NCBI GenBank assembly: GCA_000934665.2
Contig: KZ539034.1
Location: 1 to 35,758, forward strand
Length of the DNA: 35,758 nucleotides
Direction: 5' to 3'
Source of the DNA: Catajapyx aquilonaris
Taxonomy: Eukaryota
Shown: piece by piece, positions 1,609 through 13,798 of the stretch
How the letters are laid out: each line of letters opens with the position of its first letter
Position numbering within the stretch: position 1 is the first letter of the stretch
Translations under genes and position numbers: made by a program
The notes under the pieces: model-generated
What the model was told of the DNA's origin: nothing
The model's database searches: none
Seen by the model: only the letters and a program-made list of their open reading frames with translations

Positions 1609-3648
1609 GGTTAACACAGTCCGGACTAGCTGCATAAGGTTTTTTAAAAATAACTTGCATCATTGGAGGATGAATTGGGTGGATCGCGCAAGGACCATTA
1701 AGTTATTAATACTGTAATGACGTTACAACGCTATACCTTCTCTCTGGCTTATTTCGCCTTTACTGGGTTTTTCTTTCTGGTTTCCCCATTATTATGTACC
1801 AAATGGTCAGTTTATAGGATGCAATGTTTTGTGTAATTGGTGTAGGCTACGAATATCCTGTACCACAGCATTTAAAATGTTTTAAAATTATCTTGTTTAG
1901 GGATTTGCCCTGGGCCTACATGAACTTTCACATAACGAAAGTATTTTAAGAGTCAAATCTCAATTTTGAAGGTCTGTTTGGATAATAGCTTATCAATCCC
2001 CCTCAATTTATTGTAGGCCTAATTACTCTTTTATTAGGCTAATTTAATTTATTTATTGACCCAGTGAGGTCGGTGGCAATTGCCGGAGACAGTCAGTGGC
2101 ATCAAAATTTTTTACAATAATGGAAAAAGGAAAAGAAAAAAAAAATGATATCATCAGAGGCAGGCACAAAGAAACCATTTATGGAAAGCAAAACAAAATC
2201 TCAAGGCAACAGTCAGAAAATCAATACTTGAAGAAATTCACTATCTTTAAAACATTTTTAGAAAATTGAATAAGTTGTCTTCACATACCCTACAGTGATT
2301 TATTGTAATTACTCCACTTTGCTTGGCATATGGCCTCAGAAACAGTACTGATACCTACCACGCAAGCAATCTTGAGCAAATTCCCCCAGTCAGAGACACA
2401 TTATGGGCCCGATGCACGTTCGCCTGACACCATGCGGATTTGCCGTACGTTAAGTTTCAGGTAGGCCTGGATCACTCTAGGATGGTACAGGTGCTCTTTT
2501 TATGGTGTCACCTTGTTTGGATCTGATTGGACAATGCGTGACTAATTGACATGGAACTTTCTGTCCAAGTTTTGATAAAAAATAAAAAATAAAGATCACC
2601 CTATACTGTTTAGCATTCCACAAAAACATTACATCATTTTATCAATACTTACGAAGTGTGGTAAGCAGCGAAGTTCAGATAAGTTGTGCCAGTGACAATC
2701 CTTTCCAAGTGGGCCATTCCTATTTATCACAATAATTAGTTGTTATTCAGAACCTGAAGAGTTGCTTTTGTCCAACCTAATATTAGAAAGAAAAAAAAAG
2801 TGATAAAGCCTAAAAGTAACTGTCTGAAAGTATCTGCTTCATTCAGAATGGTACTGCATTTATTAGAGATTGAAAGGTTATTACTGCACTACAATTAGTG
2901 TGCATGACCTGTGATTTATTGGAGTAATGACTAATATATTGGCACAGTGGATCTTAGTCCTCATATATGCATTGGTCAATTCATGTTTTGAAGGAGGAAA
3001 GGACATGAAGGTAAGCCTTTCCCTCCATAAGACAATTCACTGCTGGAAAAGCAATACATGTAGGCTTCCGATGTGCTGTGCTTCAGGACCCAGCTGGTTT
3101 CTTACTATGCAAGTTTACTATAGTGGAATCCCAAGTGCATGGAAACAAGCAGAATCTGGAGGACTTCAATTTTCAGTGCTGCAGCCTGCAGGTGAAATTT
3201 GAAAGTATCTAGGGCTGGGTTGCGTGATTGAGAGTGATTACAGACCAAGTGGTTGATCCTATCTAGGGTTGGCAACCATGTTCCTAACAATGAAAATTAA
3301 GGATTAACCACTTGTTCTGGATTAACTATCAGTTACACAACTTATAAGCTTTTTGGTTTTTATCATAATTAGTGGTTTTTCAATTAAATTCTGTTTGTAT
3401 CACTTCCATTATCCTGCTAACCATGGTTATAAATTCCAGGTGTAATGTGACTTTATGGGTCCCTAGGGGAGTTTGTCAAGATGTCTTCCCACACCTCTCC
3501 ATATAAAATGATGTCCTGCCTCTGAAACTGGTGAGGATCCTGATCATCAAATGGTATTAACAGAGCCAACTATGAATATTGCAGCATATCCTGGAACATT
3601 CAATGCTATAAATCGGAAGCCAGGGAGGTAATTTGGGGCTCAATGGTT

Positions 3649-3654
3649 TTTATT
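3649..3654 (-). terminator. Candidate polyadenylation signal AATAAA serving ADAT2 and probably SMUG1
   Basis: TTTATT on + at 3649-3654, about 135 nt past the ADAT2 stop. It is the first canonical signal I see downstream of the SMUG1 stop. Confidence 0.5.
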
Positions 3655-3788
3655 ATTATTTGCATATATTTGGAGAAGTACAGTCAATACATGTAAAACT
3701 AGCTACAAATGGAATCAAAAGTTCCTTTTTTTGTTTGTTTTCCTTTTTTGAAATGTTTAGTAGTAATAAATGGAATTCTAAGGAATAA

Positions 3789-4292
3789 TCACGTCCTACG
3801 CTTTTTCTTGACTTTGTCAGGAGGAGCCGAGGGATTTTCCCCTTTGTAGAATTCCTTAAGGAGCCTAATGGCTTCGTCCTTCCGGATTCCGGCATGCAGC
3901 GAGGGATGCCACGTGGAACCGGTCCGGACATCGTACACTGAGCCACAGCCTCCAAACCTAGGGTTTGAGCAGCCGAAGAAGATCTCTCTAATTTGTAAAT
4001 CTCGCAGGGCTGAAGCGCACATGATGCAAGGCTCAACTGTCACATAGACAACAATATTTGGAAACACATCCACATGCGAAACACCATTTTCAGAGCAATA
4101 CAGCAACACTTGATCTACACAATTAATTTCTGCATGACGAGTCGCATTTTGGGTCTCGTTGACAGTGTTCCTTCCGGAAGCTATGATTTCACTGTTGTAC
4201 ACAAAGACACAACCTACTGGCACTTCGCCAACTGCAAGTGCTTCGTAAGCCTTAGAGAAAGCAGCATCCATGAATTTCTGCGTGACTTCCAT
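3789..4292 (-). CDS. ADAT2: tRNA-specific adenosine-34 deaminase catalytic subunit (Tad2/ADAT2), single exon, 167 aa
   Basis: ORF carries GEVPVGCVFV, NATRHAE (Zn-binding His plus catalytic Glu), YVTVEPCIMC, FFGCSNPRFGGCGSV and LLKEFYKGENPSAP, all typical of ADAT2. Start context is GCCGCCAAACCATGG. Confidence 0.95.
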   Translation of the reverse strand: MEVTQKFMDAAFSKAYEALAVGEVPVGCVFVYNSEIIASGRNTVNETQNATRHAEINCVDQVLLYCSENGVSHVDVFPNIVVYVTVEPCIMCASALRDLQIREIFFGCSNPRFGGCGSVYDVRTGSTWHPSLHAGIRKDEAIRLLKEFYKGENPSAPPDKVKKKRRT

Positions 4293-4322
4293 GGTTTGGC
4301 GGCGACAAAAATTAGAAACTGT

Positions 4323-5400
4323 TCATGAGGCAAGGTCGGTCTGGAAGAAGTGCATCAGACCCAGGTCCTGAAGGGCTTTGCGGGTTGCTTCCTTCCACCC
4401 CTTGTTTGCTGCTGGGTTGATGGGGCTTGGGTGCATCAATGAAAACACCTGCACAAAGGAGATTGGCCAATAAGAAAGCCGCTGTGGGGGTTGGCACCCG
4501 ATACACTACCTGAACATTGTTCACCACGCCTGACTGGAGAGCCAGCAGCGCCCTCTCCTGCGGGAATTTTCCAATGCCAAGGATCACCTTGACCTTCAGC
4601 AGGTGAACAATCTGTAGCAGTGCCTCGTCGCAGGCAGCAAATAGTGCCCGGCGTTCAGCGGCCTGCAAAAGAAAGAAGCGTGGCAGTGAGCAGACAAACA
4701 CAGCAAATGAAGCAGGCAGTCACCTTCAGCTGTGGGGGTGTGATGTTCTTGGCCGATTCTTTCATGAAGGCCAAGGGGCAGTAGTTATGAACAAATGCGT
4801 GTCGGAAGAGAACCTCTGGCTCAGAGCACAGCTCACGAAAGAAGGTCCAAAATCGCTGGCCGCTGACTTCGCTGCGAGGGCACTGTAGTCCCTGGATCAG
4901 TCTTTGCGGGTGCTCCCGTGCAGGTTTATGGACACTACCTTGGACCTTCAACCAGTCTTTGACCAGGGTCACCTCTCCAAAAGGAATCTGAAACAGCCAG
5001 GCATAAGCATCAGACCAACAATCCCACAGCAACGGATCAGCATGGACGACGTCGAGATTGAGGGTATGGCACTAACCCCTGTCTGCGACATCCCCCACGG
5101 TCCCGGATTCATCCCCAGGAGGAGGATATCTTTAGTGCTATTGCAATACTTTCGCACGTAATCACCGTGCGTCTCGTATGCATACTCAATCGGGTTATAG
5201 ACATAAGCAACAGGAGGGGAAAAGAAAATTCCTCGCAGTCTCTGATTGAGTCGGTTCTCTATCCACAAAAACTGATCTGAAACGCTGCATGGTATGTATT
5301 CGCTTTGAGGTAGTCCTGGGTAGCACACAGGACCCGTACTATAATCCTGCGAGACAAGGTAGGCCCGCTTTGCCAGCGGCTCTCCTTCCTCATAATACAT
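4323..5400 (-). CDS. SMUG1: Single-strand selective monofunctional uracil-DNA glycosylase (UDG family 3), 4 exons: 5400-5077, 4987-4724, 4662-4510, 4448-4323; 288 aa
   Basis: Motifs YVYNPIEYA, LLGMNPGPWGMSQTG|IPFGEV, RSEVSGQRFW, FVHNYCPL, NITP and LMHPSPINPAANKGW. Three phase-0 GT-AG introns of 89, 61 and 61 nt join the ORF fragments in frame. TGA at 4325-4323. Confidence 0.93.
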
Positions 5401-5639
5401 GGTGCTATGTGTGGAGTGACTGTAACAGACCAACACATTACATTACAGGCAACTGTCACTTTCCACTGTCTACCCCTAACCCACTCCTACTTGCCTGACT
5501 TCTCTGGCAGGTCTCCAACACTCAGCAAACACACAGGTCACTCGCACCTTCCTAGACCCGCTCCTCTATTCAAGCCCCACTCCTTGCCATTGTCAACATC
5601 ATTGATTTTTTACTTTTACAGGTCCATTACTGCCATTAC

Positions 5640-5800
5640 GCCCCGTTACTTTGCACATGAGCCGCCAGTTGGCGCGCATGTTGTTCACCAGGATTATCTT
5701 CAACATTGCTAGTGGTGGCTGACTCTATGGTCTCAGGAAGACATCTTGCTACAGGCAACTTATTCCCCCCAAGGGGTATGGGCTCCGCTTCACTACTCAT
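5640..5800 (-). CDS. Possible upstream coding exon (or 54-codon uORF) of SMUG1
   Basis: ATG at 5800 opens MSSEAEPIPLGGNK...VQSNGA. A phase-2 donor GC|GTAATG at 5639 joined to the acceptor ttacag (exon resumes 5419) is in frame with the SMUG1 ATG. No homology recognised. Confidence 0.35.
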
Positions 5801-8800
5801 TTCACATGCACTAGTGGATGCTAGTGGGGATAGTTGGGATAAAAGGCGGACGGTTAAAATACCTTTTGGGCTCTCTGTGTGTGTAAGGCAGAAAGCAATG
5901 TGGTGCAAGTTGATTGTAAGGCAAAATATGGCGTGTACAATGTAATGATGCGGAATATTTAATATATTGTTTAAAAAAATATGGAAAAATAGAGTATCGG
6001 TTTTTTAGCTACACAATTGCAGTAAGTGCTTATACAGTATACATGTTAGGACCTACAGCGCACACTCATATAACTTTTGCCACCACTTTAAAATAAACAC
6101 ATTTTTTGTCGCTATTTATATTTGTGGATTACATGTGCATCATAAATTTCCCAATGTAACCCACTGTATAAAAGTGGTTTAATATTTATTGTAGTTTATG
6201 AGATGATGTATGCCAATGAATTGTTAATTTTGTTATGCGTAACTATACGTATTAAGTGCATGCCATTCTAACTTGACCTTCACATACAGTATACTCTGAA
6301 GTCGGCATGCAAGTACCATGGCCAGGAACAGGCTGTGCTTTGGAACTATACCTTCGGAATAACCTCTTGCTTCCGTTAGTCGTTAGATAAGAGGCTGTTT
6401 CATCAATACTGTCCTTCTCTGTCTCGGAATAAAACTCAGACGAAAGTTGAGGTTAAGATCGCAATGCACTGTCAGTACTTGCTAATATAGCCTCTGACAT
6501 AACTGAGGCATACACAGCTTTTTTTCCATAATTGAGCTCATATCCATAAATGTAAAAATCTCGCTCATTCTCATGTCCATACTCCTTGTGTCAACTCACA
6601 CTCAAGTGTGGGAGAGAGTTACACACAGAGTTGAAAGTGCTTTACAACTGTGTTGATTATATGATTTCTTGAATATGAATTCATAAGGTCAGCTAAATTC
6701 GCACCGAAACAAATGTGAGCTAAGTTCTGAAGCACATGGTAATATATGAGAGCGAAAATGACACAGCTGAACAATAATTTTGAATTCGCCTTACACATTA
6801 TCTTTAGAACTGCAATTAGTAAATAATGCATACCGTACAATGAAATGCAGAATGAAAAATGGTATCATGACTAACTAGTTACACTTGTACCTTGCTGGTA
6901 CTCAGTTCACATATACGTAACAGGCTTGCAAAAACATACTTCCTTATTGTAAATCGCAGAATATTTAAATTTGTATGCAACAGCATTTCTCTGGCCTCTG
7001 CTCACGCGATACAATTTTTTGTGGGAACTGATATTTTCAGGTATTTTCGGAATCTCTGTACCAAAGTTGATCCTTAGGGGACTTGTGAGAACAACCTCGG
7101 CTTAACTTGGATACACAGTCAGTTATACAGAAAACCCGCAAAATAACCCGCAAAATTGCAACTTTTAATGAGTTTTTTTAAACAAAATTCGACCATGATT
7201 ACGATAAACGGCTTCAGTGTCTTCAGCGAGCTTATTGTTCTTTTATTTCTGGCCTAATCTTAACTGGTATCTTATTGCAGTACACCAAGATAAATAAGCT
7301 CTTACAGAAAATCTATTACAACACACCTGCCATCAGCATTATAATTATTCATAATTAATTCAGAACAATATTAGAATTACCACATTTCGTCCCTTGCCAG
7401 ATCCAGTAACACCCCCCAGATTAGTAGTTAGGCATACTAGAAAATATTTAAATCACAATTCAGGCTTTTATAATAGTTTTCAGCCCTATAAAAAAATGGA
7501 TGAAGGTTCTGAATCCAATCAGACGAATATTCCTTCTTGGACTTCCAAGAAATGCTGATGAGGGTTGAGAAGCAAGATGAACACCACTTCCGCCACTAGA
7601 GTGAAGCTTCTTATTTCTACACCATCTAAGACTGTAAGGACCCGCTTGCGTATGCCATCTGCATTGCCGCGCAGGAAAGTTGGTAATGGGCATTTTACGT
7701 TTCAGTCTATCGATCTACTGACTCGGTCTACAGCCAAGACCGAAGGGAACCATGCTTCAGGTTTCTTAGTTTTTCCGTCTGGCGCGCTTCGACACTATCT
7801 GCCCTTTATTTTGTCTTTAGTTGTATAGTACGGCACTTCACTAACGACTTACAGTCGTTATGTTGTGTCAAGGGAGATAAATGTCTTATCACTTAAGACT
7901 CTAATGCAGAATATCCCACATTCAAGGCCAAATTTTTATTCTAGTCGAATTTTACGTACGAATAGTAGGATTTAAATAGTTATCTCATCAAATGTTAATA
8001 GACAGTCATTTTGCAGGGTATTTAGTTATGTTATTATAAATTTGCATAAAAATGGTGGAAATTAAATATAATGGCACAAATCGGAAATTGACTGCAATTT
8101 GACATAAAATATAGACCTACTGAAAGTGCAAAATAGCCTTCTTGTGTTGGACACATAGGTCTAGAAAAGCAGGATTTAGATGTAAGTCAGGAGGGAGCGC
8201 TGGGGTGGGGAATAAAGAAAGCAGGGACTGGACAGAGTTTATGAAGTGGCGCACAGGTGGCAGCAATACTGCTAGGATTGATTTGAAGCAAACAATCATG
8301 TACAGTACGTACTACACAACTTGCACATTACGAAGATATCGTGGACATACAAGTGAAACACACTATTGTAATTTTGGAAAATTTGAGTTATACACTAAAT
8401 AACCTTTTAAATATTTTATTGCCTGGAGCAGTCTATTTAGTTCTAAAGACTCATCGTTAGCTAGTATTTCATTATGTAAGCCAATTTGCTTATGATTATC
8501 TCAAAACTGATTTTTTTGATCTTACAGTTAGAGTGTTTCAATTGTATGCCGTCGATGTAATAGTATATACCTCAATACCTGTCTAAAAGTTGTTGTCTTT
8601 GGGAAAAGCAGACTGTGTGTATATACTGTAGCCATTTCGAATCTAACAGGCCAGAACAAACCAAGAGGATTTTTATAAAGGAATTTCCTTATAAAGCCAG
8701 CATATGAAAGCAAATATAAGGCTTTTTAAAAACTTTTGGAGAGAAAAAAAACTTATTTCCGCCGGAAGTTTGTACTTCAAATGGCAGCCACTAGTTCAAT

Positions 8801-12504: not shown

Positions 12505-12659
12505 CGGGGGCGGATCCAGGAATGGGGGGGGGGGGNNNNNNNNNNNNNNNNNNNNNNCCCCCCCCCCCCCAACAACGGCGTCTAGATCCGCCACTGGAGC
12601 CGTGGGGGGGGGGGGGGGGCGATCGCCCCTTCGCCCCCCCACCCCTGGATCCGCCACTG
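12505..12659. mobile_element. hAT-type MITE containing a nested end of the 1418-1608 family (spans an N gap)
   Basis: TIRs CGGGGGCGGATCCAGG...CCTGGATCCGCCACTG with 8-bp TSD ATTCGCCA (12497-12504, 12660-12667). The internal end at 12571-12596 is a near reverse complement of the left end of the 1418 element. Confidence 0.78.
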
Positions 12660-12884: not shown

Positions 12885-13027
12885 CAAGGGGGTAATCACT
12901 CGACTGAAAAGTGTACACTGGAGTACCAAATTCAAGGAGTAGGCTACCACGGAGTAATAAAGAGTGAGGTGCCTGAGGAGTACCACTCCCAGGTGTACAC
13001 CGGAGTACAGAAGTGATTACCCCCTTG
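12885..13027. mobile_element. 143-bp MITE, P-element-like or hAT
   Basis: Perfect 16-bp TIR CAAGGGGGTAATCACT, 8-bp TSD GACCAAAC (12877-12884, 13028-13035), internal GGAGTA repeats. Confidence 0.8.
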
Positions 13028-13046
13028 GACCAAACCCTCTGGAATA

Positions 13047-13798
13047 TACAGGGTGTTCCAGAGTTAACGACTCACTCTTTGAAACGCAATTACTTTCGAA
13101 CGGAACAACATATTTATTTAAAGTACGTACCAAAACATCAAGGGAGGTTGCGAAAATCTTCCATGTAGGTGACAGTACTAAGCAATGCTCAGGTCTTGCA
13201 ACAAAAATGGCCGAAGCAAGACTGTCGTTAGAGAAACGCGTCCAGTGTGTTCGACTGTATTCAGTGACAAAAAATGTTACAGAAGTGTGCCGTCAAATGG
13301 CAAACCTTTTCGGTGGACCGGCTCCTACCCGAAAAACTGTTGCGAGGATAAACCAACGGTTCGATGAAACTGGAAGTGTCTTGGATCAAAAGAAACCCGG
13401 CAAAGGGAGAACAGTTGTGAATGCAGAAAACAAACAGCGCATCCGAGATGCACTGGAAAGTTCTCCAGCAAAAGCAAAATCAGTCCGACGCCTGTGGGGT
13501 TATCTGAAGGAAAAGGTTTACCACCATCGAATGGGCTCCCTGGAGCATCTGCGTGACATAATCACACAGGAATTCAACGCGATCCCTGTTGACTTCTGTC
13601 GGAAGGTGTGCGACAACGTCGCCTTGCGATTGCAGGCCTGCATCGACGTGGAAGGGGGGTTGACCATACCATGGACCATACCAGGTCTTAAGTTAGTATT
13701 TCCTTGATGTTTTGGTACGCACATTAAATAAATATGTTATTCCGTTCGAAAGTAATTGCGTTTCAAAGAGTGAGTCGTCAACTCTGGAACACCCTGTA
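13047..13798 (+). mobile_element. Internally deleted Tc1/mariner element, 752 bp
   Basis: TIRs of about 98 bp starting TACAGGGTGTTCCAGAG with 4 mismatches, TA on both sides, and a transposase-derived ORF inside. Confidence 0.9.
13207..13707 (+). CDS. Truncated Tc1/mariner transposase: HTH domain fused in frame to the C-terminal tail, catalytic core missing (166 aa)
   Basis: N-terminal HTH (PAPTRKTVARINQRFDETGSVLD...GKGRT...SP..KSVRR) runs directly into LWGYLKEKVY...RLQACIDVEGG. The DDD/E region and the SPDL motif that normally precede LWGYLK are absent. Confidence 0.75.
   Translation: MAEARLSLEKRVQCVRLYSVTKNVTEVCRQMANLFGGPAPTRKTVARINQRFDETGSVLDQKKPGKGRTVVNAENKQRIRDALESSPAKAKSVRRLWGYLKEKVYHHRMGSLEHLRDIITQEFNAIPVDFCRKVCDNVALRLQACIDVEGGLTIPWTIPGLKLVFP

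Follow-up and report, generated by a model that had tools for sequence, protein, structure and literature searches.

A SMUG1–ADAT2 gene pair in Catajapyx aquilonaris as a candidate dicistronic transcription unit

Operons of tunicates have very short gaps between their cistrons, and termination-reinitiation after a long open reading frame (ORF) is known from caliciviruses with their termination upstream ribosomal binding site (TURBS), from the influenza B M1/BM2 pair and from some non-LTR (long terminal repeat) retrotransposons. Among arthropods, dicistronic mRNAs have been catalogued in Drosophila, for which the available text of the FlyBase review counts 159 dicistronic pairs in release 6.04, 45 of them without a monocistronic alternative, states that most of these pairs do not fit a scanning mechanism, and leaves open how the second cistron is reached (PMC4528330). 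Here we describe a window of 35,758 nucleotides (nt) of the Catajapyx aquilonaris contig KZ539034.1, in which SMUG1, a uracil-DNA glycosylase gene, is followed on the minus strand by ADAT2, a gene for a tRNA-editing deaminase. RNA bridges the SMUG1–ADAT2 junction in the window species and in a relative, and the same gene order is found in several insect orders. We put at about even odds (probability near 0.5) that the two genes form a shared transcription unit giving a dicistronic mRNA, from which ADAT2 would be read by a non-canonical downstream start.

Gene structure and RNA across the junction

As read from the sequence and from the ORF list, the coding sequence of SMUG1 starts with an ATG at 5400-5398, ends with a TGA at 4325-4323 and lies in four exons, which join into 288 codons with no internal stop. 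ADAT2 is intronless and extends over 167 codons from an ATG at 4292-4290 to a TGA at 3791-3789, and the gap between the SMUG1 stop and the ADAT2 ATG, 4322-4293, measures exactly 30 nt. The initial annotation had placed the SMUG1 stop at 4323 and the ADAT2 ATG at 4292 on the same strand with a 30-nt spacer, coordinates that both readings reproduce; its exon numbering was slightly off, there being an extra exon in the 5′ untranslated region (5′UTR) and the exon with the SMUG1 stop containing also the whole of ADAT2, as the terminal exon. All three coding introns of SMUG1 are of the GT-AG type and 61-89 nt long, and only the 5′UTR intron is GC-AG. The spliced transcript model of 1720 nt has a 5′UTR of 165 nt and a 3′UTR of 154 nt, and the features of the pair are, from 5′ to 3′, as follows.

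5495..5640, minus strand: exon 1, 5′UTR only, drawn from contig pieces, with two upstream ORFs (uORFs); the contigs of two species end at 5640 and 5641
5420..5494, minus strand: 5′UTR intron, GC-AG (CAG/GCAAGT...TTACAG/); joint 5419/5495 in run X1
5077..5419, minus strand: exon 2, 19 nt of 5′UTR and SMUG1 codons 1-108, with the GMNPGPWGM motif; match to solved SMUG1 9ggs, 8.3e-20
4724..4987, minus strand: exon 3, SMUG1 codons 109-196, ending in NITPPQLK; contig joint (cut +1); match to 1oe4, 1.6e-35
4510..4662, minus strand: exon 4, SMUG1 codons 197-247; contig joints (cut +1, cut +2) and stop-free joined ORF
4326..4448, minus strand: first part of exon 5, SMUG1 codons 248-288, with the HPSPIN motif; match to 9ggs residues 237-266, 3.3e-06
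4323..4325, minus strand: SMUG1 stop codon TGA, sharing its frame with the ADAT2 ATG
4293..4322, minus strand: intercistronic spacer of 30 nt, without ATG, in-frame stop or poly(A) hexamer
3789..4292, minus strand: ADAT2 ORF, 167 codons and TGA, start context CAAACCATGG, with HAE, PCxxC and a lysine/arginine (K/R)-rich C-terminal tail
3635..3788, minus strand: shared 3′UTR, 154 nt, 27% GC, with AATAAA at 3654-3649; the X1 contig ends at 3635

The RNA evidence comes from contigs of two runs, X1 and X2, neither of which is recorded as RNA and whose RNA nature we take from the removal of introns. In X1, a single contig of 1720 nt matches the window with 0 mismatches in the pieces 3635-4446, 4508-4661, 4723-4987, 5077-5419 and 5495-5640, all four introns being out, and since the skipped stretches have GT..AG ends (GC..AG in the 5′UTR intron) on the minus strand, the contig derives from spliced RNA. 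X2 belongs to another organism, about 6% diverged (99 of 1702 aligned letters differ), and its contig of 1717 nt has the three coding-region joints of X1 together with a slightly shifted 5′UTR joint; the length of the spacer is kept in it with 0 gaps, and four substitutions fall at 4296, 4301, 4305 and 4315. In both species the spliced contig is continuous over the 5′UTR exon, SMUG1, the spacer and ADAT2 and ends 14 nt past AATAAA. Reads must span the 30-nt spacer, since the assembler's word is longer than that. No intron-retaining or alternative contig over the locus was seen in X1 or X2, in contig sets where depth is flat per contig and k-mer assembly loses rare forms. Away from the gene pair, a 4245-nt X1 contig meets the window at 6702-6738 over 37 nt only, with 5 mismatches and both ends loose, and probably represents part of a repeat that is expressed at another locus.

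The transcript model holds a single AATAAA, at 3654-3649 and 638 nt after the ADAT2 ATG, and no ATTAAA anywhere, which bears out the earlier observation that the spacer has no poly(A) signal and that the AATAAA at 3654 lies past ADAT2. The signal architecture is that of a Drosophila-type dicistronic mRNA, with no 3′-end signal between the ORFs and one shared poly(A) site. The ADAT2 AUG itself stands in a strong context, with A at -3 and G at +4 (CAAACCAUGG). At the other end of the transcript, exon 1 carries two uORFs of 6 and 10 codons, with five ATGs, ahead of the SMUG1 start (5587-5636, minus strand), and these might modulate SMUG1 translation and scanning behaviour.

The identities given to the two genes at the outset are upheld by matches to solved structures, by Pfam and by motifs. 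ADAT2 matches dCMP_cyt_deam_1 (PF00383, 3.4e-21) and MafB19-deam (1.3e-21) in Pfam, and among solved structures (3dh1, 7nz7) the human protein at 3.6e-52 and the mouse protein at 4.7e-52, bacterial TadA reaching only 1e-16 to 1e-19. Its zinc motifs, H53-A54-E55 and P88-C89...C92, are invariant across a 22-sequence alignment, in which the K/R-rich tail (the C-terminus here reads ...PPDKVKKKRRT) is likewise kept; such a tail sets ADAT2 apart from bacterial TadA. ADAT2 acts as a heterodimer with ADAT3, and no ADAT3 was found within the 35.8-kilobase (kb) window. Family 3 uracil-DNA glycosylases have the motif GMNPGP(F/W)GM, with the catalytic asparagine, and HPSPRN near the C-terminus; the first is present in exon 2 as GMNPGPWGM, aligned to human SMUG1 9ggs, and the second in exon 5 as HPSPIN, with isoleucine in place of arginine. 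A Pfam search of the raw SMUG1 exon ORFs gave no match, and the identity of this gene rests on searches of the PDB, where three of the four coding exons, each queried separately, found solved SMUG1 at the values listed above.

The gene order in other arthropods

In a metagenome survey, 80 loci encoding ADAT2 relatives were searched with 120 SMUG1-family proteins, and SMUG1 was found in two of them (L002 and L005), both times directly upstream and on the same strand. The insect-like and AT-rich L005:226-1499 (GC content at third codon positions, GC3, 0.11-0.15) has both genes intronless and a gap of 2 nt between them (TAA AA ATG). L002 has an ADAT2 that shares 86.7% identity with its counterpart in the ant Polyergus, and an AT-rich spacer of 192 nt with an ATTAAA. 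A relaxed SMUG1 search of the other 78 loci gave nothing credible, most of these loci being short or, at 31-50% identity, non-arthropod.

Among Logan contigs, all four same-source contigs of equal size in the ADAT2 and SMUG1 match lists are taxonomically concordant, being sawfly-, chalcid-, ant- and tenebrionid-like and 2.1-8.6 kb long, where a shared contig is judged from equal size and matching taxonomy, not from identifiers. Both cross-source coincidences of size were set aside as chance, the proteins pointing to different taxa. The SMUG1 ORFs of the four concordant contigs run into an intron after NITPxxLK, and these contigs are for that reason genomic and silent on RNA. The position of this intron is common to the window (4724) and to the hymenopteran-like and beetle-like P0121, P0123, P0124 and P0184. 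A contig of equal size for both genes was also present in three of the four named species with contig data, namely the stomatopod Oratosquilla, the sawfly Athalia and the bethylid wasp Prorops, the exception being Neodiprion, where the genes are not on a contig of equal size.

Public gene models were a further source. Five of 90 longer ADAT2 relatives carry both UDG and deaminase Pfam domains, and a sixth, from Diabrotica, was recognised by reading its sequence; in all six fused models SMUG1 is N-terminal and ADAT2 C-terminal. They come from the beetles Holotrichia, Trypoxylus, Lamprigera, Pyrocoelia and Diabrotica and from the assassin bug Rhynocoris, and we read them as merged models, a sign that the two genes lie very close together. 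If so, six or more of the public gene models for insects fuse SMUG1 and ADAT2 wrongly, and annotators should split them. The initial annotation had regarded the pairing as undescribed: judged by title and start of abstract, no paper on SMUG1–ADAT2 gene linkage was found among those listed, and none pairing SMUG1 with “dicistronic”, but the pair already stands in public annotation in the form of these fused models.

Other partners of ADAT2 turned up in the same way. Two gene models of trombidiform mites (P0254 and P0255) join eIF4E, N-terminal, to ADAT2, C-terminal, and in a model of the ostracod Notodromas (P0251) an N-terminal ADAT2 is joined to MEAF6; ADAT2 seems to tend towards very close neighbours on its own strand, with the partner varying. 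The reverse order is seen in the beetle-like P0242, a Logan contig of 1353 nt with one ORF of 370 amino acids, in which ADAT2 is followed by a SMUG1-like part with a degraded motif (GMNPGLNGM), and which could be a duplicate, a pseudogene or a chimera.

Every named sequence among the best 120 ADAT2 matches is from an insect or a crustacean, at 53-62% identity, and one further match reaches 92%. In the ADAT2 tree the window protein falls among insects and malacostracans, without support, and in the SMUG1 tree it groups, without resolution, with Daphnia and non-arthropods and apart from the insects sampled. A recent local retrocopy as the origin of ADAT2 was rejected, as the gene is intronless also in the ant locus, in L005 and in L001. 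Going by these sequence comparisons, the order of SMUG1 and then ADAT2 looks old and common to Hymenoptera, Coleoptera and Hemiptera.

The remainder of the window is gene-poor. Only one of the 67 other ORFs of at least 75 amino acids has a Pfam match, a transposon-type helix-turn-helix ORF (DUF4817/HTH_32) at 12961-13704 on the plus strand, and the tight spacing of SMUG1 and ADAT2 is therefore not the product of a compact genome. Given this gene-poor setting and the recurrence of the tandem order in several insect orders, the 30-nt spacing is more than chance. Assembly gaps in the window appear as runs of N at 1479-1577 and 12536-12557.

How the second cistron might be reached

The shared transcription unit favoured here would be driven by one promoter, upstream of about 5640, and closed by one poly(A) signal, at 3654-3649; its five exons would give a spliced mRNA of about 1.72 kb, the last exon of which would carry the end of SMUG1, the 30-nt spacer and the whole of ADAT2. 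SMUG1 would be read by ordinary cap-dependent scanning. For ADAT2, either ribosomes that had terminated at the SMUG1 UGA would go on to initiate at the well-placed AUG 30 nt downstream, or entry would be internal. The gene order would persist mainly because ADAT2, having neither promoter nor terminator of its own, could not part from SMUG1, and not through cooperation of the two enzymes.

Several points weigh against such a unit. A k-mer contig can merge overlapping transcripts; of the single dicistronic mRNA that the initial annotation had proposed, the spliced contigs bridging both ORFs in two species and the single poly(A) signal are in favour, but a contig over two genes is not proof of one molecule. 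The window and X1, moreover, may stem from one project, which would leave X2 alone as independent. Between the starts of SMUG1 and ADAT2 lie 11 AUGs, and SMUG1 is not AUG-depleted, with 10 observed against 12.3 +/- 2.3 in codon shuffles (for SMUG1 of L005, 13 against 15.4 +/- 3.0); leaky scanning to ADAT2 is unlikely on these grounds and was rejected. Folding of the 180 nt that surround the junction is no stronger than in shuffled sequence (z = +0.37), with nothing there like a structured entry site, and restart after an ORF of 288 codons is normally inefficient. A single fixed coupling mechanism is made less likely by the variable length of the spacer (2, 30 and 192 nt). Finally, L001, the locus with the best ADAT2 match (61%), groups with Artemia and lacks SMUG1 over the 10 kb to each side of its ADAT2. 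The linkage extends to Hymenoptera, Coleoptera and Hemiptera, but is missing at this branchiopod-like locus, and the mite models pair ADAT2 with eIF4E.

The length of the upstream ORF and the 11 intervening AUGs, which make downstream initiation hard, also speak for two overlapping transcripts, where a long SMUG1 mRNA would have ADAT2 merely as its 3′UTR and ADAT2 protein would come from a monocistronic mRNA with a cryptic promoter inside the SMUG1 exons. This arrangement deserves to be taken seriously, even if we would wager against it: contigs reveal neither starts nor single molecules, and the ant spacer, with its 192 AT-rich nucleotides and its ATTAAA, could carry signals of its own. In the available text of the FlyBase review, at least one of the genes also has a monocistronic alternative at 114 of the 159 dicistronic loci of Drosophila (PMC4528330). 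Neither run, however, has a contig with another 5′ end or a retained intron, a weak point given that contigs lose rare forms, and with gaps as short as 30 nt (here) and 2 nt (L005) the only place left for a promoter is the SMUG1 coding sequence. Very unlikely, in our judgement, is an operon of the spliced-leader kind, in which the ADAT2 mRNA would be freed by trans-splicing at an AG acceptor in or near the spacer (cttcttccag/ or atgaacag/). AG dinucleotides preceded by pyrimidines do occur at the SMUG1 end, and the host is pancrustacean, trans-splicing being known from nematodes, tunicates and some crustacean groups; but no loose-ended contig with foreign 5′ letters was seen at ADAT2 in either run (contigs drop minor forms), no AATAAA or ATTAAA precedes the spacer in the transcript for an upstream SMUG1 end, and the assemblers recovered the unprocessed form in both species. 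Insects, which share the gene order, are not known to trans-splice leaders.

A fusion protein was considered as well, as the ORFs 4323..4505 and 3789..4322 follow each other without a change of frame, with UGA and AUG 33 nt apart and a linker of 10 codons open between them, in which the four substitutions of the relative create no stop. Readthrough of the UGA would give a SMUG1-linker-ADAT2 protein of 466 residues, and readthrough is a recognised FlyBase category in the available text of the review (PMC4528330). Yet an in-frame open linker has a chance of roughly 1 in 5 (estimated as 1/3 x (61/64)^10), in L005 the frames of the two ORFs differ, in the ant they agree but several stops lie in the spacer, and the ADAT2 start retains its own strong context, and we give such a fusion scarcely any credence. 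The base after the UGA is A, and it is C in this place that makes the codon leakiest.

As to why the two genes stay together, ADAT2 (with ADAT3) may deaminate C in DNA and co-expressed SMUG1 may remove the resulting uracil, so that selection would keep the pair. Trypanosoma brucei ADAT2/3 reportedly deaminates C to U in DNA, and the order is conserved over several insect orders; a downstream cistron without its own promoter, however, stays linked whatever its function, eIF4E and not SMUG1 precedes ADAT2 in the mite models, the ostracod model has ADAT2 with MEAF6, and the branchiopod-like ADAT2 locus has no SMUG1 nearby. On this evidence we find functional coupling quite improbable. An ancient obligate dicistronic unit, kept over hundreds of millions of years in insects and related crustaceans so that the glycosylase would be made whenever a deaminase able to act on DNA is made, and with a possible in-frame readthrough fusion in this lineage, is also improbable. 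A link between DNA repair and tRNA editing through SMUG1 and ADAT2 is speculation, and the idea is somewhat weakened by the present analysis.

If the long RNA does feed ADAT2 synthesis, the pair would be a natural two-gene mRNA conserved over insect orders, its first ORF running to 288 codons in the present species. ADAT2 is essential in eukaryotes where examined. With their natural range of 2, 30 and 192 nt, the spacers would, on the same condition, form a comparative series on the question of how ribosomes in animals get to the second cistron once they have translated a long first one.

Comparison with known systems

The shared transcription unit proposed for SMUG1 and ADAT2 can be set beside four known systems. 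With the spliced-leader operons of nematodes and tunicates it has in common close same-strand genes and, as proposed, one upstream promoter; unlike in those operons, neither a leader-bearing contig nor an upstream poly(A) signal was found here, and the uncut RNA with two ORFs was assembled. Termination-reinitiation systems likewise have the next AUG only a few to some tens of nt from the stop of a long ORF (2 in L005, 30 here), but no conserved upstream motif or structure was found in our case, and the 192-nt spacer of the ant misfits tight coupling. The ADAT2/ADAT3 DNA C-to-U deaminase of T. brucei belongs to the same enzyme family, the protein encoded here having HAE, PCxxC and the K/R tail, a likeness in sequence motifs that is silent on activity on DNA.

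In Drosophila itself, CG5285 and CG5292 are probably SMUG1 and ADAT2 and may be neighbours; the available text of the listed papers that mention them gives neither the products nor the positions of these genes. Neither of these two names nor SMUG has an entry in 11 of the 12 supplement files of the FlyBase review, among them File S1 with all polycistronic genes (PMC4528330). The dicistronic mRNAs of the fly, such as Adh/Adhr, stoned A/B and Mocs2 with CG42503, resemble the SMUG1–ADAT2 pair in having two non-overlapping ORFs for unrelated proteins on one strand. Going by the available review text, the unit proposed here would also share with them the single processed and polyadenylated transcript, the lack of a spliced leader and the non-standard downstream start (PMC4528330), and the host is an arthropod in both cases. 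The fly mRNAs differ in that the upstream ORF of SMUG1–ADAT2 is long (288 codons) and not AUG-poor, and in that its order is kept across insect orders, which is documented for few pairs. On the best reading, SMUG1–ADAT2 works like a dicistronic pair of the Drosophila type, and apparently like an old and widespread one.

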